Of a DNA stretch of 64,000 nt, positions 49,682 through 62,979 are shown in pieces. This stretch comes from an uncultured bacterium (GTDB taxonomy: Bacteria > Fidelibacterota > Marinisomatia > Marinisomatales > UBA1611): the NCBI GenBank assembly GCA_965660855.1, contig CBFIBM010000001.1:128001-192000 (forward strand), written 5' to 3'. The translations under genes were made by a program, and so were the position numbers. Within the stretch, counting starts at the first letter, position 1; every line of letters starts with the position of its first letter. Under the pieces are notes generated by a model. The model was not told the origin of the DNA and did no database searches. It worked only from the letters and a program-made list of their open reading frames with translations.

Positions 49682-50455
49682 ATGATAACAATTTTATCTC
49701 CAGCAAAAAAAATATCTAAAGATTGCTCTGCAGTTACCAAAAGTTATCATGTACCTGAGTTTTTAGATAATTCTAAGGTTTTAGTAGATAGTCTAAAAAC
49801 CTTAGATCCGTTAGATTATATGTCATTGATGAGTATTAGTGAGCCATTAGCAAAATTAAACTGGGAACGTATGCAGCAATGGACTTCCAATTTTAATTCA
49901 CATAATTCAAGAGAAGCAATCTACTCATTTAACGGAGACACATATTCTGGATTTGATGTTGATTCATTAAGTAATAAAGATATACAATTTGCAGATTCAA
50001 ATGTTAGAATATTATCTGGGCTTTATGGTCTTTTAAAGCCTCTAGATCTGATAATGCCATATAGATTAGAGATGGGAACAAAATTTGAAAATATTAAAGG
50101 TGAAAATTTATATGAATATTGGGGAAGTTTATTAGGAGAAAAAATTTGTAAAGAGTTAGAATCTCATAAATCTCAAATTATAATAAACTGTGCTTCTATT
50201 GAATATTTTAAATCTGTGAAATTAGAAGCAGATAGAATAAAAGTAATTACTCCTCAATTTAAAGATTGGAAAAATGGTAAATTAAAAATAATATCTTTTT
50301 ATGCAAAAAAAGCAAGAGGGATGATGGCAAGATTTATCGTTAAAAATAAAATTGAAAATAAAAATGATATTTTAAAATTCAATTTAGGAGGTTACAAATA
50401 TCAACCTTCTTTGTCATCACCATTAGACCCTGTTTTTACCAGAAACCAAGCCTAA
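49682..50455 (+). CDS. yaaA: Peroxide stress protein YaaA
   Basis: LSPAK, ILSGLYGLL.PLD...PYRLEMG and AKKARG.MAR motifs. Confidence 0.93.
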   Translation: MITILSPAKKISKDCSAVTKSYHVPEFLDNSKVLVDSLKTLDPLDYMSLMSISEPLAKLNWERMQQWTSNFNSHNSREAIYSFNGDTYSGFDVDSLSNKDIQFADSNVRILSGLYGLLKPLDLIMPYRLEMGTKFENIKGENLYEYWGSLLGEKICKELESHKSQIIINCASIEYFKSVKLEADRIKVITPQFKDWKNGKLKIISFYAKKARGMMARFIVKNKIENKNDILKFNLGGYKYQPSLSSPLDPVFTRNQA

Positions 50456-50465
50456 AATTATAGTA

Positions 50466-50984
50466 TTGAAAAACATACTTTTAATTTTTTTCATATTTTT
50501 ATCACTGATAAATGCAGAATCGACATTCGATAAATTTAAGCATGAGGAAATTATTAAAGTAATTTTAACTGATTATTTTAAGAATGTGGATGAAAAGAAT
50601 ATTGAAGGTATACTAGATCATTTAACGTCTGAGCTTATCATGAATTTTGGTTCAGATGGAGTTACTCGTATTAAATCGAAAACAGAATTTTACCCTATTT
50701 TTGAATCCTGGAGCAAATCTAGTAAGGGTCAATTTAGTTTTACAAGGATTGATTCTATTAACATTCAAGAAACTCATATTGTAAAAAATTATACTGCTGT
50801 AGCAGATGTTACATATACTAGAATGGATAAAAATGGAAATCCTATCCGAACAGAAAGGTCTTTATATCACTTTGTGCGTGGTACAGGCTATTACGGTAAG
50901 CCATTGAAATTCATTTGGGAAGTGATGATAAAATGGCTAAGGCCTTGGAAGATTTATATGATTTCCAATATAGCATTAGATTGA
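50466..50984 (+). CDS. Secreted NTF2/SnoaL-like protein, copy 1
   Basis: Signal peptide; DYF..VDEKN.E...; DVTY.R...RSLY.FV...WKIYM. Clear paralog of 51644..52114. Confidence 0.65.
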   Translation: MKNILLIFFIFLSLINAESTFDKFKHEEIIKVILTDYFKNVDEKNIEGILDHLTSELIMNFGSDGVTRIKSKTEFYPIFESWSKSSKGQFSFTRIDSINIQETHIVKNYTAVADVTYTRMDKNGNPIRTERSLYHFVRGTGYYGKPLKFIWEVMIKWLRPWKIYMISNIALD

Positions 50985-50991
50985 AAACATT

Positions 50992-51567
50992 TTAAAAATC
51001 TATTTTAAGAGCCCTATCTTCATTATTAATGTTATCTTTTTTAATATATGAAAAAGATTTATGCTTGATTTGTTCCTTATCAAAATATTCTGTTAATTTT
51101 CTTAAATATAAGTCCTCCATTCCTTCTTCGTATCCAGATTCTTTGTGAATTATTTTACCTTGTTTATCTATTAATAAAAAAGTTGGGTAACCTATAACTT
51201 TAAACTGTTTTGCAATTTTTGAAGAAGGGTCAACAGCAACATCAAACTTATATTTTCTCTTTTTTATATATGGCCTGACTTGATTAATGATATTAGGTTT
51301 ATTAACATTTACAGCAAGAACTGTTAATCCTGCATCTTTAAATTCTTTATTTAGCTGATTTAAATAGCCTAACTGGCGTTCACAATATGTTCACCATGTA
51401 GTCCAAAAATTAATAATCATCGGACCATCTGAATGAAAATCAGAAAGCTTTGCGTACTCTCCATCTACCATTCGAATTCTGGAGTTTCCAATCTTTTTTC
51501 CTTGAAGGATTATTGGTGAGAGGAGGTAGGATAGAAGTAGTATGGGTATAAATAACTTATTTTTCAT
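50992..51567 (-). CDS. Exported TlpA/thioredoxin-fold selenoprotein, copy 1 (UxxC; Sec at codon 59)
   Basis: Not in the ORF track. ATG 51567, signal/anchor, GPMIINFWTTW-TGA(51391-51393)-TYCERQLGYL...VLAVNV...GYPTFLLIDKQGKI, TAA at 50992; 191 aa with readthrough. Confidence 0.88.
51361..51390 (-). promoter_or_regulatory. Candidate bacterial SECIS hairpin, copy 1
   Basis: UGAA-C-GCC-[AGUUA]-GGC-UA-UUUA; the loop starts 16 nt after the UGA and has G at loop position 2. Confidence 0.7.
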
Positions 51568-51643
51568 GTACCTAATTTTATGATAATCAAATGTAAATAT
51601 TAAATAAAATTTTCCAAATTTTTTTCTTAAATTGGATTAAAAA

Positions 51644-52114
51644 TTGAACCTTATGAAAACTCATATTATATTATTTTTAACTTTTTGCATTAATCATAAT
51701 TTTATTTTTGGAATTGATAAACCGAAGGATGATAAAAAAATTATCAGTTCATCCCTTATAGATTATTTTTCTAAAGTTGACGAAAAAAATCTTGAAAGCA
51801 TGTTAAATTATATTGAATTACCTTTTATTTTAAACTTTGAATCAAAAGAACCACTCCATCTAAAAAATGAAGACGAATTCTTTGAGGTATTTGAACTTTG
51901 GAGCAAGTCTGAGAAAGCAAATTTCTTAAAAACTGTATTAGATTCTGTATCTTACACTGAAATTCATAAGGATTTTATGTGGGTTGGGGATGTTACCTAC
52001 TCTAGAGTAAATATAAAAAGTGGGATTAAAGAGACAAATAGATCACTTTATTATTTTGTGAAGAAGAAACATGACTGGAAGATTTATATGGTAAGCAGTG
52101 TTGATTTTGATTAA
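51644..52114 (+). CDS. Secreted NTF2/SnoaL-like protein, copy 2
   Basis: DYFSKVDEKNLE...FELWSKS.K..F...DS...DVTYSR...RSLYYFV...WKIYM. Start may be ATG 51653. Confidence 0.65.
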   Translation: MNLMKTHIILFLTFCINHNFIFGIDKPKDDKKIISSSLIDYFSKVDEKNLESMLNYIELPFILNFESKEPLHLKNEDEFFEVFELWSKSEKANFLKTVLDSVSYTEIHKDFMWVGDVTYSRVNIKSGIKETNRSLYYFVKKKHDWKIYMVSSVDFD

Positions 52115-52133
52115 AAAATAATTAGTAGTGTTT

Positions 52134-52700
52134 TTAAAAGTCTATATTAATTGCTTCTTTTTTGTTATCATTCTTTCTCTCATATTCAAAAGCTTCATAT
52201 TCGATATTCTCATTGGTAAAGTAAGATTTGAGAGCTTCTAAATATTCTTCTTCCGTACCATCTCCATAACCTGCACTTTTATGTATTACTTCGCCATTTT
52301 TGTCTATAAGATAAAATGTAGGGTAACCTTTTACATCAAATTGTTTGGCTAATTTAGAAGTTGGATCCAAGGATACATCAAATTTATACTTTCTTTTATT
52401 TATGTATGGCCTTACTTGATTTACTATTTGAGGTTTATTTGAATTGATGGTAAGAACTTTTAAACCAGTCTTACTAAATTTTGAATTAATTTGATCTAAA
52501 TAGCCTAACTGGCGTTCACAATTTGGTCACCACGTTGTCCAGAAATTAATGATCATTGGCCCATCTTGGTTAAAGTCAGACAACTTTGCATATTCTCCGT
52601 TTAACATTTTGATCCTTGCAGTGGGAATTTTATTGTCCTTAAGTGCAAGGCCAACAAAAAAAGACAGGAATACTAATGAAGAAAGAATATGTTTTTTCAT
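52134..52700 (-). CDS. Exported TlpA/thioredoxin-fold selenoprotein, copy 2 (UxxC; Sec at codon 58)
   Basis: The track shows only the 78-aa tail. Full frame from ATG 52700: MKKHILSS...GPMIINFWTTW-TGA(52527-52529)-PNCERQLGYL...GYPTFYLIDKNG; 188 aa. Confidence 0.88.
52497..52526 (-). promoter_or_regulatory. Candidate bacterial SECIS hairpin, copy 2
   Basis: 24 nt identical to copy 1 (TGTGAACGCCAGTTAGGCTATTTA) at the same distance from the UGA. Confidence 0.7.
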
Positions 52701-52820
52701 AATTAATGTTAAAATTATAATTTTAATCTTTAAAAATTACTATAAAATCATTTTAAATATAACTTTATTTCTTGTAAATAAATAATGGAAGAGAATACTT
52801 TTTAATCATTAATATTATAG

Positions 52821-54029
52821 ATGGATTTGTGTATCAGTCTAATCAGAAATATTGTAAAGCATAATATACTAGCTTTACTGTTTATTATAATGCACGATCA
52901 AACCTTTGGATGTCGTTTATGGTCAATTTGTACTAAAAATAATAAAAGTATTTCTCAATTGCCATATGAAGAAAAAGACTTGGTTTATAATCAATTAAAC
53001 TCATTTTTTTTACAATCAAATATGATGAATAATGGATGGTCGTTATTAGACTATCCTGATAGTACATCTAATTTTATAACACCGATAATTAGATCTGAAA
53101 CCAAAGCTTATATTGATTCAGTACGATATTGGGCAGTAGTAGACTCTTTATTACTCAATGGTTCTGGTAAAATTGGAATGGGGCATTTACGACTTGCCTC
53201 TTCTGGAATTAATAGTATCCCAAATCCACATCCTTGGATGTTTTATAGAAACCAAAAATCTTACGCAATGATGCATAATGGAACTATTGATAAAAACGTA
53301 TTATACAATCTTATTACAAACAATGGCTCCGATATCACTTGGTTGCAAAATCACGAGCCGGAAACTTTTGATGGTTCTGATTGGCAGAGTGATGGTTGGG
53401 TTCAGGTGGTTGATTCAGAATTACTAATGCTTTTTATCATGCAGCAAGTTGAAAATGAAAATGATATATATTTAGGACTACAATTAGCACTTTCAAATTT
53501 GATGTCTCAAGGGGTTGTGGCTCATCAATTAAATTTAATTCTTTCCGATGGGAGCTTTCTTTACTGTTTTGGTGGTAGCAATGGTCTCTCTTATGCGGAA
53601 TCTTCTGATCATTATGCTGTTATGACGCAGCCTGAAAACAGTGGTCTATTAACTTGGACTGGATTAAATAATGGTGAGTTAGTAGTTATCAGTGATAATG
53701 GTTTAGAAAAATATCCAGATTTTATACAATTAGCCAATCAAGATGGTGTCCTCATACCTCGAAATCCTATTATTATGACACCAGCATTTCCTAATCCATT
53801 TAATAGTTCTTTACAGTTCTCATTTGAAAATATTCAAGATACCCCAATTATAAATATATCTATATACAATATACTTGGAAATCTTGTTGATACCATATCT
53901 AAAGAAAATATTAGAGAAAATGATTTCATTAGATGGAGTCCGCCCTTGGGAACAGCATCTGGAACCTATTATATACATGCAAAAATTAAGAATTCTAAAT
54001 TAAATCAGAAGATTTTGTTTATAAAATGA
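52821..54029 (+). CDS. Secreted class II glutamine amidotransferase (Ntn hydrolase, EgtC/YafJ-like) with C-terminal sorting domain
   Basis: Signal-like N-terminus, then CRLW (Cys at 52911), GHLRLASSG..NPHP, MHNGTI, VDSE; AFPNPFN. Confidence 0.8.
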   Translation: MDLCISLIRNIVKHNILALLFIIMHDQTFGCRLWSICTKNNKSISQLPYEEKDLVYNQLNSFFLQSNMMNNGWSLLDYPDSTSNFITPIIRSETKAYIDSVRYWAVVDSLLLNGSGKIGMGHLRLASSGINSIPNPHPWMFYRNQKSYAMMHNGTIDKNVLYNLITNNGSDITWLQNHEPETFDGSDWQSDGWVQVVDSELLMLFIMQQVENENDIYLGLQLALSNLMSQGVVAHQLNLILSDGSFLYCFGGSNGLSYAESSDHYAVMTQPENSGLLTWTGLNNGELVVISDNGLEKYPDFIQLANQDGVLIPRNPIIMTPAFPNPFNSSLQFSFENIQDTPIINISIYNILGNLVDTISKENIRENDFIRWSPPLGTASGTYYIHAKIKNSKLNQKILFIK

Positions 54030-54103
54030 TTTATTTTTCTTAAATTTGTAGGCTTTACCCTAAAAAATAAATTCAATAACACCGAATATTGGAGACCATT
54101 AAA

Positions 54104-55063
54104 TTGGCAAAAAAAGATACAGAAACGAAAGATATAGAGAAGAAAAAAATAGAAGCAGCTGAAAATGCAGCAGCTGAAAAAGCTGCTCTTGAACTTGAAG
54201 CCGCCCAGAAAAAGAAAAAGGGAAAACCGAGTAAAGTATCAAGTGGTAGTATAAGTATGTACCTTGCTGAAATTGGAAAGTTTAATCCACTTCCTCCTGA
54301 AAGAGAAGTCGAACTTGCTATTCGTATACAAAATAATGATGAAAAAGCAATGAAAGAACTTGTGGAAGCAAATTTGAGGTTTGTAGTCTCCGTTGCAAAA
54401 AAGTACCAAGGAAATGGACTTTCTCTTGCGGATATTATTAATGAAGGGAATATGGGGTTGATTAAGGCTGCTAAACGATTTGACCATACGAGAGGTTTTA
54501 AGTTTATCTCCTATGCTGTGTGGTGGATCAGACAATCAATTCTACAGGCATTAGCAGAACAATCACGTCTCATCAGATTGCCACTTAATAGAGTCGGTAC
54601 TATTACTAAAATTACAAGAGCCGCGGAAAAATTAGAAGCAGAAGTCGAACGCCAACCCAAAGGTGATGAGATTGGTGCTCAATTAGAAATGAGTGGAGAT
54701 GAAGTACTAATGGCTATGCAATATTCACGTAGACATAGTTCTTTGAATTCTCCATTTCAAGAAGGCGAAAATAGTAGCTTGCTAGATATTATTGAAGATT
54801 CAGAAGCTGAAGAACCTGAAGCAAAGATAATGATGGAGTCCATGAGTGAGGAGGTCACTGGAGCACTGGATACCCTATCTGAAAGAGAACGAATTGTTCT
54901 TGAGATGTATTTTGGCATCAATAGAGATAGTGCTATGACTTTAAATGAAATTGGTGAAGAATTTGATCTTACCAGGGAAAGGGTTAGGCAAATTAAAGAA
55001 AAAGCAATTCAAAGATTACGCCATAGATCTAGAAGTAAAAATCTTCGAAGATATTTAGGCTAG
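54104..55063 (+). CDS. rpoD: RNA polymerase sigma-70 factor, RpoD/SigA family (no region 1.1)
   Basis: ANLRFVVSVAKKY, KFISYAVWWIRQ and LTRERVRQI motifs. GGAG at 54091 favours TTG 54104 over 54089. Confidence 0.85.
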   Translation: MAKKDTETKDIEKKKIEAAENAAAEKAALELEAAQKKKKGKPSKVSSGSISMYLAEIGKFNPLPPEREVELAIRIQNNDEKAMKELVEANLRFVVSVAKKYQGNGLSLADIINEGNMGLIKAAKRFDHTRGFKFISYAVWWIRQSILQALAEQSRLIRLPLNRVGTITKITRAAEKLEAEVERQPKGDEIGAQLEMSGDEVLMAMQYSRRHSSLNSPFQEGENSSLLDIIEDSEAEEPEAKIMMESMSEEVTGALDTLSERERIVLEMYFGINRDSAMTLNEIGEEFDLTRERVRQIKEKAIQRLRHRSRSKNLRRYLG

Positions 55064-55068
55064 ATTAG

Positions 55069-55098
55069 AAAAAAGGGCTTTTAAGCCCTTTTTTTTTT
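55069..55098 (+). terminator. Intrinsic terminator (could act bidirectionally)
   Basis: A-run, GGGCTT/AAGCCC stem, T-run. Confidence 0.88.
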
Positions 55099-55129
55099 AT
55101 AAAAACTACAAAGTTAAGGTTCCCATATA

Positions 55130-56572
55130 ATGAGCATGCGAAAAAAAATAGGATTGATACTTGGGCCTGTTATTTTTATTTTTTTTCTCTTAATCCCTGC
55201 TCCTGAAGGAATGAACCCACTTGGAATGAGGGCTGTTGCCGTTGCTTTCTTAATGGCAATTTTTTGGGTTACCGAAGCCATCTCGATTTTTGCAACATCG
55301 TTTTTACCTCTAGCATTATACCCATTACTTGGGATACTTGATTCCAAGCAATTAGCCGCTAGTTACGGACACCATATTGTAATCTTAATTCTTGGTGCAT
55401 TTTTCGTAGCAAAGGCTATCGAATCAAATAATTTGCATAAGCGAATAGCCCTTTTTACAATTAAACTAATTGGCACCAGTCGATCTAGTATAATTTTTAG
55501 TTTTATGATTGCTACAGGGTTTTTATCCATGTGGACATCCAATAATTCAACAACATTAATGATGTTACCTATCGGGCTTGCAATCATATATAGAGAAAGA
55601 GACCTTGGAGCTGATATATCTGGTTTTGCACCAGCATTAATGCTAGGAATTGCCTATTCGGCTAGTATTGGTGGCACCGGTACCCTAGTTGGAACACCAC
55701 CAAATTTAATTTTTGTTAGCACCGTCCAAGAAATTTTTCCTGAGTCACCGCCAATTTTATTTACTGACTGGTTAAAAATTGGTATTCCATTTGTGATTGT
55801 ATTCTTACCTATTGCTTGCTTATATCTGGTGAAAATATTTAAGGTGAGTGGGAGTCTATATGGTGATTCTAATGTGATTGATATGGAATACAATAAGCTG
55901 GGGCTCATGTCCTCTGCAGAAAAAAAAGTTACGGTAATTGTGCTTTTCTATGCTTTAGGTTTTATCTTCAGAAATCAATGGTCTGAATTTATTGGAGTTG
56001 GTAATTATGTTAAAGATTCCACCGTTGCTATTTTAGCAGCTGTAATTCTGTTTTCTTTTCCCAGTGGTAAGCAAAATGAAATTGGAAAAAAATTACGCCT
56101 TTTAGAATGGGAAGATGCAAAAACAATACCTTGGGGTATCGGAATGTTAATTGGAGGAGGATTGGCAATTGCGTCCTCATTTAAAGCCTCCGGGTTAATT
56201 TTTTGGATTGGAAATAATCTTAATTTAGAGGGTATTCCTTCCCTTATAATTTTATTTTTAATTGTCACCTTCATGGTTTTTCTAACAGAAATAAATTCAA
56301 ATGCTGCTTCAACTGCAATTTTTTTACCTATTTTAGCTGGAATATCAAAAGCAGGTGGATATCATCCCTTCCTTTTAATGGTACCAGCTACGATTGCTGC
56401 ATCTTGCGCATTTATGCTCCCTTCTGGTACAGGACCAAATGCAAGTATCTTAGCAAGTGGTCAATTGAAGATACCTCAAATGGCAAAAGCTGGATTCGGG
56501 TTAAACCTAATAGCAATTCTTCTGATAATAATTTTGACCTATACGGTTATAATGCCTTCCCTTGATATTTAA
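55130..56572 (+). CDS. SLC13/DASS family sodium:di/tricarboxylate symporter
   Basis: FWVTEAI, LSMW.SN, GTLVGTPPN, LTE..SN.A and AFMLP.GT.PN motifs. Confidence 0.93.
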   Translation: MSMRKKIGLILGPVIFIFFLLIPAPEGMNPLGMRAVAVAFLMAIFWVTEAISIFATSFLPLALYPLLGILDSKQLAASYGHHIVILILGAFFVAKAIESNNLHKRIALFTIKLIGTSRSSIIFSFMIATGFLSMWTSNNSTTLMMLPIGLAIIYRERDLGADISGFAPALMLGIAYSASIGGTGTLVGTPPNLIFVSTVQEIFPESPPILFTDWLKIGIPFVIVFLPIACLYLVKIFKVSGSLYGDSNVIDMEYNKLGLMSSAEKKVTVIVLFYALGFIFRNQWSEFIGVGNYVKDSTVAILAAVILFSFPSGKQNEIGKKLRLLEWEDAKTIPWGIGMLIGGGLAIASSFKASGLIFWIGNNLNLEGIPSLIILFLIVTFMVFLTEINSNAASTAIFLPILAGISKAGGYHPFLLMVPATIAASCAFMLPSGTGPNASILASGQLKIPQMAKAGFGLNLIAILLIIILTYTVIMPSLDI

Positions 56573-56754
56573 ATGATGATTTAATGTGTTTTTTATCACG
56601 TTGTAACATTATTACTTGTTCTGCATAATTTTGCTCTTTATATTGAGGGGCATCCATTACAAAGCTTTTTTTTTTATTTTGTAACAGTGCATCCACATAC
56701 CTACCGCAGTAAAATAAAAGTAGTACAAAAAATAAACTAAACTTGGAGGTTTAG

Positions 56755-59700
56755 ATGCAAAGAGCGATAATAACATTGCTCATGTTGTCTTTTGGCGTAA
56801 GTTTGTATGCAAATGATACAGCACCTCGTCAAAAGGGCGATTCTTTTCAGTATGGATTACCTACTTACAAAAGTCCTGAGAATAGAACGGAAGAATATGA
56901 GCTATACATGGTTGATACCTATGGTGATGGTTGGGACGGTTCCACCTTAGATCTTAACATGAATGGAGTGTCAGTTGCGACTGGATTGACTGTTGATGGA
57001 GAATCTAACAGTTTTTACTTTAATGCTGACGATTATGATTATTTAACCACTGGATTTACCATCAGTACTAGCTGGGCTAGTGAGTTATACTATGGTATCT
57101 ACGATTCAGAAGGCTACCTTCTTTATGATGGTTATGGAAATAGTGCTGAAGTTGATATCAGCTCTCATCCAGACATGACCACGCAATGGACAATAGATTC
57201 CAGTGAAGAAAATGTATTTCATAATCCTAGTTTTGAAGCAGGCATTGCAACCTGGGATAGACATCCTGACTATGATTGGGCAATTGCAACTACAGGAGAG
57301 GGAATTTATAACTCTGATGCAACATTTACTGCGTACAGTGGGGATAATTCTTTTAAAATGTGGGCTTCATGGACCGGGCTTGAAAATAATGTTTTCAAAG
57401 TTTTTGAAGGAGATATTGCAGCTCAATTAGCGGGTGAAACTTTCACTATTTCAGCTCACATGATGAGTCATGCTGATGATTTGTTAGGTGAAGGAACTCA
57501 CGCTAAATTAGTTGCAAAATATTTTGGACCTGGACCAAATGGCGATGGATCGAACTGGTGGGAGACATTTATGTTCATGGATGAGTCCGAATATTTAGTG
57601 GGTTCATTAGCTACAGCAACAGAGTGGACAGAATACTCTCTAACAACCACTATACCTGAAGGGGCATATCACATTGAAATTGGCTTTACTCTTAAAAAAG
57701 ATGCTGATGGAGGTGGCTCTGTGTATGTGGATAACCTCATTGGAGATTGGGTAGAACCAGTTGAGGTTATTGAAAATGTTTATTTTTCAGAATATGCTGA
57801 AGGTTCAAGTAATAATAAATATTTAGAAATTTTTAACGGTACCGGAGCGGCGATTGATTTAGCAGATTTCGTTGTTTTAGGTAACTACAATGGTAACGGA
57901 TGGTCAGAAACAATTCCATTTGCAGTTGGTACAATCGTAGAAGCAGGTGATGTTTATGTTATCGCAAATAGCTCAGCAGATGAAGCTATTTTAGCGGAAG
58001 CAGACGTCGCATTTGGTTATGGAGCCTACGATCCAGAAGCTGGCACGGCATATGTCACCTCATTTAATGGTGATGATGTAAGAGCACTAGCGATGGCAGG
58101 AGATCCTTCTCTTATTGTGGATCAAATTGGTACTCTAGATTTTGATGGAGATGGTATTGAAGGTGAAGGAAATGAAGATGATCCAGGCAGTGGTTTTGAT
58201 GCTGCAGGTGTTTCTGATGCAACAAAAGATCATACATTAACTAGAAAGCCAGGTATGCTTGGTGGAAATATGGGCAACTGGAGTCAGTCTGCCGGAACCG
58301 ATGCTGAAACCAGTGAATATGTCGTCCTAGATCAAAATGATTGGACTAGCTTAGGTTCTCACAGCAATGAGGTTGTAGAAGTTTGTGATTTCACGGAAGT
58401 AACACTTAATATCGCAGATTCTTACGGTGATGGTTGGAATGGAAACATCCTCACTGTTGGTGATCTTAACTTTACATTGGATGGAGTTGCCGATGATGGT
58501 TCTTCTGCCAGTTTTGATTTGTGTCTAGAAGATGGTGCTTACGCAGTAACCTGTGGAGGTGGAAGCTATCTATCAGAAGTAAGCTGGGAAATGTTAGCCG
58601 CAGATGGCACGGTTCTTCTTGCTGGTGGTGCGCCATATGAAGGATTCCTTCAAATTGGTGAAGTAGTAGATGTGCTAGGTTGTACAGATCCAGAAGCATT
58701 AAATTATGATGAAACAGCAACACTCGACGATGGTACTTGTGTTTATGCAGGTGAGGATTGTGCAACGGCATTAGTCGCTGCAGCCGGTTCAAATGAAGCA
58801 CCAAGTGCTCCATTCTGGTATACTTATACTGCAACGTTAACTGGAACTGCAACAATTTCTTCTGTTGGTGGTGGAGTTGATACTCAAGTTTACGGTTATA
58901 CTGGGGCATGTGATGCACTTGTAGAAGTTGGATTTGGTGATGATGAGGGTGGGGGACCTGAGTGGTCATCCATCATGGTCCTTGATGTAGTAGAGGGTGA
59001 ATCTTACTATATAAATTGGACTGATTATTGGTCACCATCTGGTTTTGTATGGACCTTAGAGGAAGCACTTTATCCTGTAACTCCACAAAACCTTACAGCT
59101 GAAGCTGGAATGGATAACGTATATCTAGCCTGGGATGCTGCTGAACCTGTTGGACGATCATTCGTTGAGATACAAAATGATAGACAAGCAAGAGCTGAAT
59201 ATCAAGCTGAGAAAAAAGCGAGTCTTTATCCAAATAGATCAACAGAAGTACATCTTAATAGATATAGCATTAATCCAGATTATGATCCTGAATTCAATAA
59301 CACCAGAACTAATAATGTAGTGATTAATTTAGGTGGTGGAACTTGGGATTCAGAGATTTCATGGAATATCACCAATTCAGAGGGAACTGTGGTTGCCGAA
59401 GGTGGTGCCCCAATAGAGAACTTAGAATTGGTCCTTGAAGATGGTACATATAACTTTAATGGTTTTGATTCCTATGGTGATGGATGGAATGGAAGTGCTG
59501 TGACTGCGACAAATGCAACACAAGTATTTCTTTTCTGGTGGTTAGATACCGGCTCAGAGGGCACTGCAGAGTTTGCAGTTAACGATGGTGCTGCAAATTT
59601 ATATCTTTCCAATATAAATTATGATCAAGATACTCAAATGATGAGTGTTGATGTGAACAACGATGGTACACTATGGGCCTATGGTGGCGACGTAGCTCCG

Positions 59701-62700
59701 TTTATTGGATCTGTTCCAAATGGAGATTGTCAAGAACCTGGTTCAATTGGACAATCTGTTCCACAGCCACTTGCGCCTGGGTCGTCTTATAATTTTGCAT
59801 TTGATATCGATTTAGTAGATATTCTTGGATATGGTGTGCATCCAGTAGGTGCTATGGTTGATTGGTCTTGTGCAGTCCCAGAACTGGATGAGAATGATAA
59901 CACTATTGGGGGAGAGATAACTCTTGTTGATCCATTAGATGGTATTACCTTCTCAGTTTACAGAGAGGATGCTGCTTCCGGTACATATGCTTTAGTTGTA
60001 TCAGGTCTTGAATCTGAAATGTTTTTGGATGAATCAGTAGTCGGCGGTACGGGTTATTGTTATTATGTGACTCAAACAGCTGCAGAAGTTGAATCTGGTG
60101 CATCTAATATTGCATGTGCAACTCCATATGGTTCAGATGCTTTTCCAGCTCCTACAGCATTAGCAGGTGAAGCGGATGGATATGATGTGATGCTTTCTTG
60201 GACAGCTCCTGATTTAACAGGCTGGGAGCCTCCTAGGCACAATTCACGATTTGCTCCTTCCATGAACAAACCGATGACTCATACCCCTTCCAATACAGAA
60301 CATACAACACCTCCAGCTACAAGACAGGGTGGAGATACTTTTGAAACTGCTACAGTAATAGATGCACTACCTTACGTAGATAATGGATCTACAGTAGGAC
60401 TTGCTGCAGACTATGGACCATATGCAGACTTAACCACTTTAGTTTGTGAGTTTGGAGATACTTACTATAGTGCAACCTCGACTGCAGCAGGTCCGGATGC
60501 AGTGTATTCTATAGACCTCGCGGAAGATGCATTCGTAAATATTTCCCTGTGTGGGTCAGGTTACGACACTGGTCTTGGAGTGTTTAGCTCCGATGGAGTT
60601 CTTGTTGCAGCAAATGATGATTTCTGTTCATTTCAATCAGAGGTTACATGTTCTATGCCTGCTGGAATGTATTATATTGTTGTCAGTGGTTGGGGAACGG
60701 ATGCAGGAGATTATGTGCTTAACGTAGGTACTGTTGACCCTCCATCACCAGTTGCTGGATATAATGTATACAGAGATGGAGAGATGGTTGGTTATGTGGA
60801 AGGTGTAGATGAAACATCTTTTTCAGAATTTGTATACAGCCCTGAGATGCCTGAAGGTGGAACATATACATACGCAGTTTCTGCTTATTATGATGTTCAA
60901 GATGCTTCTTCAGTGCTTTCTGACCCTGTGGATGTAACAACTACTGCTCCACCATTTGAGTGTGTTGCACCAACAAATCTAACAGCTGAAAATCAAGGCA
61001 ACGATGTTATGTTGAGTTGGGATGGACCAGCAGGTGGGCCTACATGGTTTACTCACTTTGATGGAACTGTAAACAGCGGAGTTGGTACAGCGACAGGATT
61101 GTTTAGCTTAGAAGCTGCTGTAAAGTTTGGTCCAGAAACGACCTTAGACTTAATGGGTCTCTCATTAACACAGGTTGCTTTTATGACAAGCGATGTAACA
61201 GCTTTATTTAAAGTCATGATTTATGACCCAGTTTCAATGTTACCGGTTGATTCAACTGATGTTATTGATCCATCAACCTTAATTGTTGGTGATTGGAATA
61301 TTGTTGATTTACCTAATCCAATAGCCTTAGATGGTTCTGAGGTGATGTTTGGTTACAAGGTAACTGTGACTGCAGAGGGAACATATCCTGCTTCAATGGA
61401 TTTACAGTCTGATCATAATGGTATGGATAACTTAATTGCGGGTTTTGGATCACCAATGCAAAGTATGCTTGATGCATACGCTATTGATGGAGGTTGGGCA
61501 ATTGCTGGTTATGCAGATTATGGTCAAGGTCAATCCATTGTTTCATTAGATCCTCCAGTTTTTGACAATGTCATTAACCCTGGAGATTTTGATGTTAGGC
61601 ATCTAGCGAATCCGTTAGAAGTCTCGTTACCTGTTGAACAGATGAATCGTGCTTTATTGGGTTATCATGTTTACAGAAATGATACCACTATTGCAACTGT
61701 ACCACCTTCAGAAACATCATATGATGACTACGATGCTCCATGGGGAACTGTAGAGTATTATGTTACTGCAGAGTATGATGATACGGAAGATTGTGGTGAG
61801 TCTGATCCTTCAAATGTTGTTTCTATCGATCTAGCAAATAACCCACCTTCTGCGGTGAATTTAATTGCGCCACCAAATGGTGCAACCTTCACTATTAATG
61901 AAGGTAATATGGATCAGGGCAATATGTTTGTATGGTCACCTTCTAGTGATGCAGATAATGATCCTATCGAGTATTACCTAGGTGTAGAGACTGAAGTTTT
62001 GGGAGATACCTTGGATGAGTGGTTTCCAGAAAACGCACTGCAAAACGGTGACTTTGAAGATGGAACAGATCATTGGTTCTTCTACCCTCCTGAAGCAACA
62101 AACACCTCATATGATGAGGATATGGAAATGCTCATGATTGGTGGACTGAATAGTGGAGATAATACTGAAAATAATGTGTACCAAGAATGGCCAGGAGATG
62201 CCTTACCTGTAGGTACTCACTTTGAAGTATATGGTGAGGTTATGTCCCCAGCTGATGATTTCATTGCTGGAGATAACCACTTTGTATTGTTTGCTAAGTA
62301 TTTTGATTCTAACTGGGGAATGATTCATATGGATCATTCTGAACCAATGAGCGCACAAAATGCAACAGCAGATATGTATCATGAACTGGAATTTGAATCT
62401 ATAGTTCCAGAAGGTGTTGCTGTAATGCAAGTCGGTGCCATGTTTGTACAAGCTACACCGGATCACGGTGGTATGGTAGGAATAGATGAAATATACATGC
62501 ATGTTCCAATGACTGTTACTGGCTTTGAAATATCAAACAGTATGTTTGGTGAATTGATGCTAGAAACTCAAGTTACTAACTTGACTGTGGAATGGGACGT
62601 ATGGGCATTTGATGGTTATGATCCAACTCCATCAACGGGTTCACGTACATTCACGGTGGATGCTAGTGATCTTCTGTCTGTGAATAACATTGCGTTACCA

Positions 62701-62979
62701 ACATCATACGCATTGCATAACAACTACCCTAACCCATTTAACCCAGTGACAAATATCTTGTATGATATTCCTGAGTTAACTGATGTTAAGTTAGAAATCT
62801 TTAATGTCATGGGACAGCGTGTCAGAACTCTTGCAGAGGGTAAGCACGAAGCCGGACGTTATCAGATTGTTTGGAATGCAACCAATGATATTGGTGAAAG
62901 TCTATCTTCTGGTATGTATATATATCGTATACAAGCCGGAGACTTTGTAAGTGTGAAAAAACTTGTCTTAATGAAGTAA
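56755..62979 (+). CDS. Giant (2074 aa) acidic secreted multidomain protein: CBM-like x2, lamin-tail domain, D(S/T)YGDGW modules x3, CARDB-like, PPC-like, split FN3 x3, C-terminal sorting domain
   Basis: GGAGG RBS; signal peptide; lamin-tail motif FSEYAEGSSNNKYLEI; NYPNPFNP C-terminus; no catalytic motif recognised. Confidence 0.85.
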   Translation: MQRAIITLLMLSFGVSLYANDTAPRQKGDSFQYGLPTYKSPENRTEEYELYMVDTYGDGWDGSTLDLNMNGVSVATGLTVDGESNSFYFNADDYDYLTTGFTISTSWASELYYGIYDSEGYLLYDGYGNSAEVDISSHPDMTTQWTIDSSEENVFHNPSFEAGIATWDRHPDYDWAIATTGEGIYNSDATFTAYSGDNSFKMWASWTGLENNVFKVFEGDIAAQLAGETFTISAHMMSHADDLLGEGTHAKLVAKYFGPGPNGDGSNWWETFMFMDESEYLVGSLATATEWTEYSLTTTIPEGAYHIEIGFTLKKDADGGGSVYVDNLIGDWVEPVEVIENVYFSEYAEGSSNNKYLEIFNGTGAAIDLADFVVLGNYNGNGWSETIPFAVGTIVEAGDVYVIANSSADEAILAEADVAFGYGAYDPEAGTAYVTSFNGDDVRALAMAGDPSLIVDQIGTLDFDGDGIEGEGNEDDPGSGFDAAGVSDATKDHTLTRKPGMLGGNMGNWSQSAGTDAETSEYVVLDQNDWTSLGSHSNEVVEVCDFTEVTLNIADSYGDGWNGNILTVGDLNFTLDGVADDGSSASFDLCLEDGAYAVTCGGGSYLSEVSWEMLAADGTVLLAGGAPYEGFLQIGEVVDVLGCTDPEALNYDETATLDDGTCVYAGEDCATALVAAAGSNEAPSAPFWYTYTATLTGTATISSVGGGVDTQVYGYTGACDALVEVGFGDDEGGGPEWSSIMVLDVVEGESYYINWTDYWSPSGFVWTLEEALYPVTPQNLTAEAGMDNVYLAWDAAEPVGRSFVEIQNDRQARAEYQAEKKASLYPNRSTEVHLNRYSINPDYDPEFNNTRTNNVVINLGGGTWDSEISWNITNSEGTVVAEGGAPIENLELVLEDGTYNFNGFDSYGDGWNGSAVTATNATQVFLFWWLDTGSEGTAEFAVNDGAANLYLSNINYDQDTQMMSVDVNNDGTLWAYGGDVAPFIGSVPNGDCQEPGSIGQSVPQPLAPGSSYNFAFDIDLVDILGYGVHPVGAMVDWSCAVPELDENDNTIGGEITLVDPLDGITFSVYREDAASGTYALVVSGLESEMFLDESVVGGTGYCYYVTQTAAEVESGASNIACATPYGSDAFPAPTALAGEADGYDVMLSWTAPDLTGWEPPRHNSRFAPSMNKPMTHTPSNTEHTTPPATRQGGDTFETATVIDALPYVDNGSTVGLAADYGPYADLTTLVCEFGDTYYSATSTAAGPDAVYSIDLAEDAFVNISLCGSGYDTGLGVFSSDGVLVAANDDFCSFQSEVTCSMPAGMYYIVVSGWGTDAGDYVLNVGTVDPPSPVAGYNVYRDGEMVGYVEGVDETSFSEFVYSPEMPEGGTYTYAVSAYYDVQDASSVLSDPVDVTTTAPPFECVAPTNLTAENQGNDVMLSWDGPAGGPTWFTHFDGTVNSGVGTATGLFSLEAAVKFGPETTLDLMGLSLTQVAFMTSDVTALFKVMIYDPVSMLPVDSTDVIDPSTLIVGDWNIVDLPNPIALDGSEVMFGYKVTVTAEGTYPASMDLQSDHNGMDNLIAGFGSPMQSMLDAYAIDGGWAIAGYADYGQGQSIVSLDPPVFDNVINPGDFDVRHLANPLEVSLPVEQMNRALLGYHVYRNDTTIATVPPSETSYDDYDAPWGTVEYYVTAEYDDTEDCGESDPSNVVSIDLANNPPSAVNLIAPPNGATFTINEGNMDQGNMFVWSPSSDADNDPIEYYLGVETEVLGDTLDEWFPENALQNGDFEDGTDHWFFYPPEATNTSYDEDMEMLMIGGLNSGDNTENNVYQEWPGDALPVGTHFEVYGEVMSPADDFIAGDNHFVLFAKYFDSNWGMIHMDHSEPMSAQNATADMYHELEFESIVPEGVAVMQVGAMFVQATPDHGGMVGIDEIYMHVPMTVTGFEISNSMFGELMLETQVTNLTVEWDVWAFDGYDPTPSTGSRTFTVDASDLLSVNNIALPTSYALHNNYPNPFNPVTNILYDIPELTDVKLEIFNVMGQRVRTLAEGKHEAGRYQIVWNATNDIGESLSSGMYIYRIQAGDFVSVKKLVLMK

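Follow-up and report, generated by a model that had tools for sequence, protein, structure and literature searches.

Class II glutamine amidotransferase (GATase) domains are textbook cytoplasmic enzymes whose glutaminase activity is restrained by a fused synthase domain. A gene of an uncultured member of the Fidelibacterota raises the question of how such a domain is kept in check, and what it may be used for, when it stands alone in a protein equipped for export. The gene occupies positions 52821-54029 (+ strand) of a 64,000-nucleotide stretch of contig CBFIBM010000001.1 (assembly GCA_965660855.1, positions 128,001 to 192,000), referred to in the following as the window. It encodes a protein of 402 amino acids, in which the predicted N-terminal nucleophile (Ntn), Cys31, is located right behind a hydrophobic leader, while the C-terminus carries a sorting domain for the type IX secretion system (T9SS). 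The reading that we favor, with a probability of roughly 60%, is that signal peptidase I (SPase I) frees Cys31 upon export, such that the precursor would be inert in the cytoplasm and the T9SS would deliver a glutaminase or gamma-glutamyl hydrolase to the outside of the cell.

The architecture of the protein can be read directly from the gene. A TAG stop codon (52818-52820) immediately precedes the ATG, so that the N-terminus of the open reading frame (ORF) cannot be longer. The leader has the sequence MDLCISLIRNIVKHNILALLFIIMHDQTFG and is followed by C31-R-L-W. According to the AlphaFold-based domain layout, the Ntn domain (residues 31-306), a linker (307-322) and the C-terminal sorting domain (CTD; 323-402) fill the protein, and a synthase domain is absent. 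The CTD exceeds the cut-offs of both Pfam Por_Secre_tail (PF18962, residues 323-398; 34.3 bits versus 27) and NCBIfam TIGR04183 (35.7 bits versus 23) and reaches residue 399 of 402. A first-pass annotation of the window had described these same elements, namely a stand-alone class II GATase domain whose Cys (CRLW, 52911) lies directly behind a hydrophobic leader, a secretion CTD at the opposite end and the lack of a synthase domain. The first of them is confirmed by the ORF, the fold and the homologs, the second by the two family models and the third by the domain layout. The catalytic domain is present in a single copy in the source genome, in which GlmS is the sole other GATase_4 match, and precomputed matches to PF13230 or PF13522 exist for most of the 120 listed homologs.

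The predicted structure leaves little doubt about the nature of this domain. An AlphaFold model built with 32 homologs (mean predicted local distance difference test score, pLDDT, of 84.6; disordered at residues 23-28, with pLDDT <50, and at 306-313) unambiguously shows, as modeled, the four-layer alpha-beta-beta-alpha arrangement of class II (Ntn) GATases. The best Foldseek matches are PurF, EgtC and GlmS, with E values from 5e-9 to 1e-7 (4.8e-9 for PurF and EgtC). VIA-align gives Z scores of 18-22 across 215-232 residues for EgtC, GlmS, PurF and GFAT, the best match being EgtC (Z 22.4, root-mean-square deviation 2.5 A, 215 of 230 residues, 21-22% identity). By sequence alone, the links to solved structures are weak (phmmer E value of 0.075 to PurF, too weak to be used on its own). 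In VIA-align rows 1-38, all of which are class II GATase-type chains, the aligned range of the model begins at residue 31, and in 36 of the 38 rows the partner of this residue is residue 1, 2 or 3 of the chain; the other two are precursor-numbered chains, in which it pairs with residues 87 and 22. Cys31 is thus the structural equivalent of the N-terminal nucleophile. It is a Cys in 31 of the 32 aligned homologs, the single exception being truncated at its N-terminus.

The remainder of the active site is conserved as well. Both a phmmer alignment with Bacillus subtilis PurF and an hhalign comparison with the GlmS protein of the same genome place R124 on the Arg of the G-H-x-R motif, which we take to be the ligand of the glutamine alpha-carboxylate in PurF and GlmS, and N153-G154 on the H-N-G motif, whose Asn-Gly pair presumably forms the oxyanion hole. 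D198 is the candidate counterpart of GlmS Asp123 and PurF Asp127, the residues that we assume to bind the alpha-amino group, a correspondence suggested by the likeness of the motifs V-D-S-E and T-D-T-E rather than by a residue-level alignment. Among 121 close homologs, R124, G154 and D198 are retained in all and N153 in 119. In representatives at 50% identity, the respective fractions are 134/136 for R124, 130/138 for N153, 138/138 for G154 and 135/137 for D198. This pattern fits a working enzyme that would bind glutamine or a gamma-glutamyl moiety with free alpha groups.

The position of Cys31 relative to the leader is what links this fold to a possible mode of activation. Residue 24 is the last of the hydrophobic core of the leader, and the polar sequence H-D-Q-T-F-G fills the six positions up to the Cys. 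Only one position in the leader obeys the (-3,-1) rule, with Gly30 at -1 and Thr28 at -3, which would place the cut between Gly30 and Cys31. A HMMER search with the catalytic domain alone retrieved 318 proteins (clusters at 50% identity, E <=0.001), and 150 representatives from this search were combined with 120 close homologs into a set of 270 relatives. Because hmmalign covered the first profile column in just 169 of these sequences, the nucleophile was identified by its motif around the position where it was expected. A few residues past the hydrophobic core, 165 relatives have a Cys and nine a Ser, while in 50 the Cys is located far behind any leader. The remaining sequences have leaders too short to judge, probably because of wrong starts (10), are truncated N-terminally (30) or lack a recognizable start motif (6). 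The predicted cleavage position thus recurs, with a leader-adjacent nucleophile in 174 of the 270 relatives, so that the arrangement is not a matter of chance. Absence of the Cys from homologs, which the first-pass annotation had named as fatal to its proposal, is not what is seen, since the position is retained as Cys or, in some, as Ser. Of the 174 leader-adjacent relatives, 163 carry Ala (149) or Gly (14) at -1. Leu prevails at -3 (121 sequences), with Val (13) and Ala (10) among the other residues there, and 81 sequences have a Pro at -4. The same arrangement recurs, wherever a complete leader could be read, in 29 related loci from other genomes of the phylum (a thirtieth, L001, is the window's own locus).

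These leader statistics also bear on a different fate of Cys31. In a lipoprotein with a type II signal peptide, Lgt would diacylglycerylate this residue and LspA would expose it, such that it would serve as a membrane anchor and not in catalysis, and the domain would be left as a binding module or as a relative without activity. The surroundings of the Cys are indeed lipobox-like, given the prevalence of Leu at -3 and Ala or Gly at -1; the strict pattern [LVI][ASTVI][GAS]C fits 42 of the 165 Cys-type relatives, a formally perfect box of this kind (L-T-A-C types) is found in 33 of 113 close homologs, and LspA is encoded in the genome, as is LepB. However, a PROSITE-style lipobox pattern fits just two of these 113 homologs, and the T-F-G-C sequence of the amidohydrolase matches neither pattern. 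Moreover, ten relatives carry a Ser instead of the Cys (P0148, P0151, P0152, P0156, P0183, P0201, P0212, P0226, P0236 and P0256), preceded in nine cases by an equivalent leader (e.g., L-N-A/S-R-L-W or F-A/S-R-F-W, with the slash marking the predicted cut) and in the tenth, P0152, by a short one. All ten keep the R, N, G, D and H residues. Since Ser cannot be lipidated, yet is a standard Ntn nucleophile, this substitution argues against a lipobox. The Ser variants are scattered over several places in the family tree, so that the change from Cys to Ser seems to have occurred more than once.

Controls from the same genome point in the same direction. Among its ORFs, 26 show a strict lipobox behind a signal-like N-terminus. 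The gap from the hydrophobic core to the Cys spans 0-4 residues in 25 of these lipoprotein candidates; a Pro at -7 to -4 and a CTD are absent from all 26, and just one has a charged residue nearby. In the amidohydrolase, by contrast, a polar c-region of about six residues that includes an Asp separates the core from Cys31, and its relatives commonly have the Pro at -4. For comparison, 75 ORFs of the genome end in a CTD, 59 of them with a signal-like N-terminus and 54 with a (-3,-1) site. In these 54 cargo leaders, L, F, I or V occupies position -3 in 42 cases, and position -1 is limited to S, A or G, as the rule requires; the +1 residue is mostly Gln, Ser, Asp, Glu or Asn, with Cys found in the amidohydrolase only. 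The leader of the amidohydrolase therefore resembles those of T9SS cargo and not those of the lipoprotein candidates. A T9SS CTD is unexpected on a lipid-anchored protein, and the near-invariance of R124, N153, G154 and D198 makes sense only in combination with a catalytic Cys. Lipidation of the Cys, another outcome that the first-pass annotation had held against its own idea, is thus disfavored by the Ser variants, the T-F-G-C sequence and the own-genome control, and we consider it very unlikely. As a separate observation, Gln is the commonest +1 residue at the predicted cargo cleavage sites (10 of 54). In the T9SS cargo of Bacteroidota, Gln is likewise the commonest +1 residue and is cyclized.

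The leader would lose its meaning altogether if translation began at Met24 (ATG at 52890). The product would then be a cytoplasmic enzyme starting with MHDQTFG-Cys, whose seven-residue propeptide would be removed as in B. subtilis PurF. A weak hint in this direction comes from metatranscriptome contigs of two runs (X15 and X16), which begin at 52870/52871, 50 nucleotides inside the ORF, and no metatranscriptome contig covers 52701-52869. However, the contigs are short and of low depth, the libraries may contain DNA, and contig ends do not equal transcript ends. RNA-library contigs of 151-315 nucleotides (>=95% identity) map to the gene from four runs of four studies; they attest to the presence of gene fragments in these libraries, but not to transcription, its level or its ends. 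The contig-free stretches, 52701-52869 and 53829-53922, prove nothing, and the shared start at 52870/52871 may be a coincidence, a result of common assembly behavior or a real RNA end. As for the homologs, the closest one, P0002 (97% identical), keeps Met24, but the three next-closest ones, P0003, P0004 and P0005, have Val, Val and Leu, respectively, in its place and still retain the upstream leader. Hydrophobic leaders precede the Cys throughout the family, and a T9SS sorting domain would be useless on a cytoplasmic protein. A start at Met24 is therefore hardly credible.

A more serious challenge to the role of SPase I comes from the relatives in which the Cys lies far from the leader. In these 50 proteins, it is found 16 to >1000 residues behind any hydrophobic leader, either 16-50 residues past the signal peptide or deep within very large proteins, so that signal peptidase cannot expose it and these relatives must process themselves. 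The residues preceding the Cys are His-Asn in 23 and His-Glu in 14 of them (37/50). The giants among these relatives are P0169 (2822 amino acids), P0182 (1138) and P0203 (3754), with the Cys at positions 701, 802 and 1099, respectively. These three proteins, as well as P0198 and P0242, have a conserved L-H-L-x-E-x-x-H-E motif before the Cys, which implies an internal self-cleavage that would split the giant proteins in two. This sister clade belongs to the same superfamily as the window protein (E values of 1e-10 to 1e-30 to the window domain) and shares the C-R-[LMF]-W start of the mature form; many of its members have signal peptides, and 10 of the 50 have T9SS CTDs. The clade of the window protein differs in having lost the propeptide and the His, with the signal peptidase site directly abutting the Cys.

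The distribution of the two activation types over the family was followed in a quick, unrooted maximum-likelihood tree of 111 catalytic domains (61 of the adjacent and 50 of the propeptide type). Its alignment omitted the leader and the nucleophile itself, and fragments whose match ended before profile position 200, as well as all but seven members of the close family, were left out. Two halves can be distinguished in the tree, both with 95% support in the Shimodaira-Hasegawa-like approximate likelihood ratio test (SH-aLRT). The half containing the window protein comprises 50 rows, 48 of them of the adjacent type; the other two, P0125 and P0153, owe their different score solely to leaders that narrowly miss the hydrophobicity threshold. 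The second half, with 61 rows, combines 48 of the propeptide type with 13 of the adjacent type. The activation label needs nine changes on this tree, six of which are forced by supported branches, compared to an average of 36.8 changes for shuffled labels, with none of 500 shuffles as low as nine. Since the tree is unrooted, it does not give the direction of change between the two modes.

Given that the sister clade must self-process, self-cleavage could produce the same N-terminus in the window protein. In this alternative, Cys31 itself would, after Sec targeting, cut the Gly30-Cys31 bond by an N-to-S acyl shift, the reaction used by other Ntn hydrolases and required of the His-x-Cys relatives, and yield the same mature enzyme, with signal peptidase playing no part or cutting elsewhere; we regard this alternative as unlikely. 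Besides the 50 relatives for which self-processing is unavoidable, it can draw on seven of the 174 adjacent-type relatives that carry Asp or Glu at -1, in which signal peptidase alone would therefore not expose the Cys and which may combine both activation steps. The family thus probably retains an autoproteolytic capacity, and autoproteolytic maturation is given as the rule for Ntn precursors in passages of a published account (PMC5474475). However, the His at -2 that is conserved in the self-processing clade is missing from the window protein, where T-F-G precedes the Cys, and in the adjacent-type relatives a canonical signal peptidase c-region, mostly with Ala or Gly at -1, has taken its place. 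The two activation types also occupy largely separate halves of the tree. In addition, a Sec leader that was left uncut would anchor the T9SS cargo in the inner membrane.

The genome provides the means for the second part of the proposed route. It comprises 2.09 Mb in 81 contigs, is 84% complete and contains 80 matches to the T9SS CTD model, two copies of the PorU sortase (596 and 559 bits versus a cut-off of 420) and SprA, which scores above its cut-off but lies in pieces on short contigs. With its CTD, its Sec-type leader and the machinery all present, the product of ORF 52821-54029 is a T9SS type A cargo as far as its sequence can tell. Of 301 genomes sampled from the phylum, 67 contain a homolog (E <=1e-10), and within the family to which the window belongs this holds for 21 of the 24 other genomes sampled. 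The homologs bear public names such as 'T9SS type A sorting domain-containing protein', 'hypothetical protein' and 'predicted glutamine amidotransferase' and are attributed to Candidatus Marinimicrobia. A corresponding Atlas cluster of 1336 members, most often assigned to the Fidelibacterota, contains Por_Secre_tail in 99% and GATase_4 in 82% of cases.

Combining these elements, the favored reading envisions the following sequence of events. In the cytoplasm, the alpha-amino group of Cys31 would be locked in the peptide bond to the leader, and because Ntn chemistry needs this group in its free form, the precursor would be inert. After Sec translocation, SPase I would cut between Gly30 and Cys31, turning Cys31 into residue 1 and thereby creating the active site. 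The folded enzyme would then cross the outer membrane via the T9SS, and PorU would remove the CTD, with the enzyme being either released or tethered to the cell surface. Outside the cell, it would hydrolyze the gamma-amide of free L-glutamine or gamma-glutamyl compounds to glutamate and ammonia or an amine, for uptake. The first-pass annotation had proposed that signal peptidase switches the enzyme on only after export. The switch itself stands as an inference, given that Cys31 lies at the only canonical SPase I site and that the glutamine-binding residues are kept. Its timing needs to be amended, since signal peptidase sits at the inner membrane, such that the enzyme would be competent already in the periplasm, before its passage through the T9SS.

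The nature of the substrate leaves room for a further alternative, in which the enzyme is secreted, folded and activated as described but cleaves a different amide or peptide bond, for instance as a peptidase or acylase on dissolved organic nitrogen. The protein shares only 12-22% identity with characterized class II GATases (VIA-align), and its family has invariant motifs of its own (W174...P180-x-T-F...W188...G192-W193) that are near no known function. Moreover, a DUF885 gene is the upstream same-strand neighbor in eight of the 29 related loci. On the other hand, the Arg and Asp that presumably hold the alpha groups of glutamine in PurF and GlmS are almost invariant, and the closest match by structure, EgtC, acts as a gamma-glutamyl amidohydrolase. 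We therefore judge a substrate unrelated to glutamine improbable, somewhat more so than self-cleavage. Neither of these two alternatives would change much in the architecture or in the activation logic.

Several known systems share individual features with the window protein. EgtC (PDB 4zfj, 4zfk and 4zfl) and YafJ-type proteins (GATase_4, PF13230) are likewise stand-alone Ntn domains with an N-terminal Cys nucleophile and gamma-glutamyl amide chemistry, which is predicted here. The window protein differs from EgtC in its 30-residue Sec leader, its T9SS CTD and about 55 extra residues that include the family-specific W/P/T/F/W/G-W segment. Its score for the EgtC equivalog TIGR03442 is 27.6 bits, compared to a cut-off of 218.65, and no ergothioneine genes were seen in the surrounding 7 kb (50000-57000). 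EgtC is a cytoplasmic enzyme that is unmasked by Met removal. The window protein is thus not EgtC. The glutaminase domains of PurF and GlmS have the same fold, with Cys31 pairing with Cys1 and the Arg and Asn-Gly residues aligned. They are fused to ammonia-accepting synthase domains, with their activity coupled to the acceptor, and B. subtilis PurF is made with a short propeptide before Cys1. The window protein, by contrast, has no acceptor domain and carries export signals.

The principle of activation, in turn, has its counterparts in other Ntn families. In Gram-negative penicillin V acylases, the signal peptide is removed directly before Cys1, a statement that our searches of the open-access literature did not retrieve. 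Gamma-glutamyltranspeptidase (GGT) is a functional analogue, as a periplasmic or extracellular Ntn hydrolase of gamma-glutamyl amides, but its nucleophile is a Thr exposed by autoproteolysis into two subunits, and its Ntn family is unrelated to the class II GATases. The periplasmic penicillin V acylases and choloylglycine hydrolases and penicillin G acylase follow the same concept, in that their Ntn nucleophile becomes N-terminal only after export. They represent other Ntn families with other substrates, are not T9SS cargo and, in the case of penicillin G acylase, are activated by internal autoproteolysis. Ntn activation after export is well known as such, as illustrated by the periplasmic maturation of penicillin G acylase in passages of PMC5474475. 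In the open-access literature, no description of secreted or T9SS-dependent class II amidotransferases was found, nor anything relevant on type IX secretion in Marinimicrobia; a search by title and abstract yielded nothing on the function of YafJ. A familiar fold and a familiar principle are thus joined in a way that is not described in the open-access literature searched, within a family that is abundant and uncharacterized.

Beyond the lipobox-like leaders, the start of the RNA-library contigs and the self-processing relatives discussed above, a few more points weigh against activation of an extracellular glutaminase by SPase I. The cleavage position and the Sec leader were assigned by simple home-made (-3,-1) and hydrophobicity rules, which are crude. 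The scores for the GATase families fall just under the Pfam gathering cut-offs (26.5 versus 27 bits for GATase_6 and 19.9 versus 23 for GATase_4), and the profile match to the solved GATase 3mdn is only weak by sequence (E value of 0.007). Finally, a catalytic thiol is fragile in oxic seawater.

Table 1. Positions of the amidohydrolase gene elements and of the adjacent divergent gene in the window.
Feature	Position	Strand	Basis or remark
Divergent intergenic region, AT-rich, 120 bp, between Sec-TlpA copy 2 and the amidohydrolase gene	52701..52820		
Sec-type leader, residues 1-30	52821..52910	+	R9/K13 n-region, core NILALLFIIM, polar c-region HDQTFG; predicted SPase I cut between G30 and C31
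Cys31 codon (TGT), predicted N-terminal nucleophile of the mature enzyme	52911..52913	+	Structural alignment, homolog conservation
Class II (Ntn) glutamine amidotransferase-like domain, YafJ/EgtC (GATase_4) type, residues 31-306	52911..53738	+	Profile scores and fold
Arg124 codon	53190..53192	+	Aligns with Arg of PurF and GlmS
Asn153-Gly154 codons	53277..53282	+	Align with Asn-Gly of PurF and GlmS
Asp198 codon, V-D-S-E motif, start of helix 198-213	53412..53414	+	Motif likeness to own-genome GlmS T-D-T-E
Linker, residues 307-322, low model confidence	53739..53786	+	AlphaFold model
T9SS type A C-terminal sorting domain, residues 323-402, and stop codon	53787..54029	+	Pfam, NCBIfam, profile match to solved Por CTD 8glj_D, VIA-align rows 44-50
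Sec-TlpA copy 2, signal-peptide redoxin, in-frame TGA 52527-52529 in W-U-P-N-C; context only	52134..52700	-	

The neighborhood of the gene (Table 1) had suggested an answer to the vulnerability of the thiol. The first-pass annotation had pointed to the divergent TlpA-like redoxin gene, Sec-TlpA copy 2, as a factor that could keep the exposed Cys reduced. This gene is indeed present, with its start 120 bp from that of the amidohydrolase gene and an in-frame TGA in W-U-P-N-C, and its product matches the Pfam families AhpC/TSA, Redoxin and Thioredoxin-like. However, a tblastn search with copy 2 detected a TlpA homolog upstream in none of the 29 related loci, 25 of which have at least 700 nucleotides of upstream flank. 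A functional tie to TlpA is therefore unsupported, and we take the adjacency to be lineage-specific. The region itself has arisen by tandem duplication of a convergent gene pair (50466-52700), each pair consisting of a signal-peptide protein facing a TlpA-like redoxin. The signal-peptide proteins (172 amino acids, 50466-50984, and 156 amino acids, 51644-52114) are 37% identical to each other and have no Pfam match. The redoxins (50990-51567 and 52134-52700, both on the - strand) are read as signal-peptide proteins via one TGA each, in W-U-T-Y-C and W-U-P-N-C, respectively, and are probably both selenoproteins, as suggested by the in-frame TGA in a W-U-x-x-C context.

No other gene qualifies as a conserved functional neighbor, and this idea was rejected, because the upstream gene varies and the downstream recurrence looks like plain conserved gene order. 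Apart from DUF885, the upstream neighbors in the 29 loci include a PorV-like barrel in three and an SSF symporter in four. The DUF885 gene ends 10-40 nucleotides upstream of the amidohydrolase gene in L006-L010 and L012-L014, and the two genes may form an operon in these eight loci; tblastn did not find DUF885 in the window's own genome, which is 84% complete. The only recurrent neighbor is an rpoD-like sigma factor gene directly downstream (54089-55063 in the window), found in 18 of the 29 loci. Its product is 78-98% identical across loci L006-L028, compared to 33-47% for the amidohydrolase. Two genes downstream of the amidohydrolase gene, at 56755-62979, the window encodes another T9SS cargo, a protein of 2074 amino acids with a signal peptide and repeated low-complexity acidic modules rich in Gly, Asp and Trp.

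Taken further, these observations suggest, as a possible but tentative generalization, that the family represents a large uncharacterized extracellular radiation of the class II GATase fold. Its mode of activation would have switched repeatedly (with at least six changes on supported branches) between His-x-Cys autoproteolysis and unmasking by SPase I, and Ser would have replaced Cys as the nucleophile on several occasions, perhaps to adapt the enzyme to oxidizing surroundings. In Marinimicrobia, the T9SS would deliver the enzyme as a glutaminase or gamma-glutamyl hydrolase for the acquisition of nitrogen from dissolved organic matter, which would be the first enzymatic function of this fold outside the cell. 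A free glutaminase of the class II fold would drain the cellular glutamine pool. A nucleophile located right at the signal peptidase site would be a minimal and elegant safety catch, in that there would be no active form on the cytoplasmic side. With its paired activation modes and its nucleophiles of both kinds, Cys and Ser, the family constitutes a natural experiment on the maturation of Ntn hydrolases. Moreover, since the family is abundant, as judged from the number of its clusters at 50% identity, the size of its Atlas cluster and its presence in most sampled genomes of the window's own family, its substrate could matter for the nitrogen supply of these uncultured marine heterotrophs.

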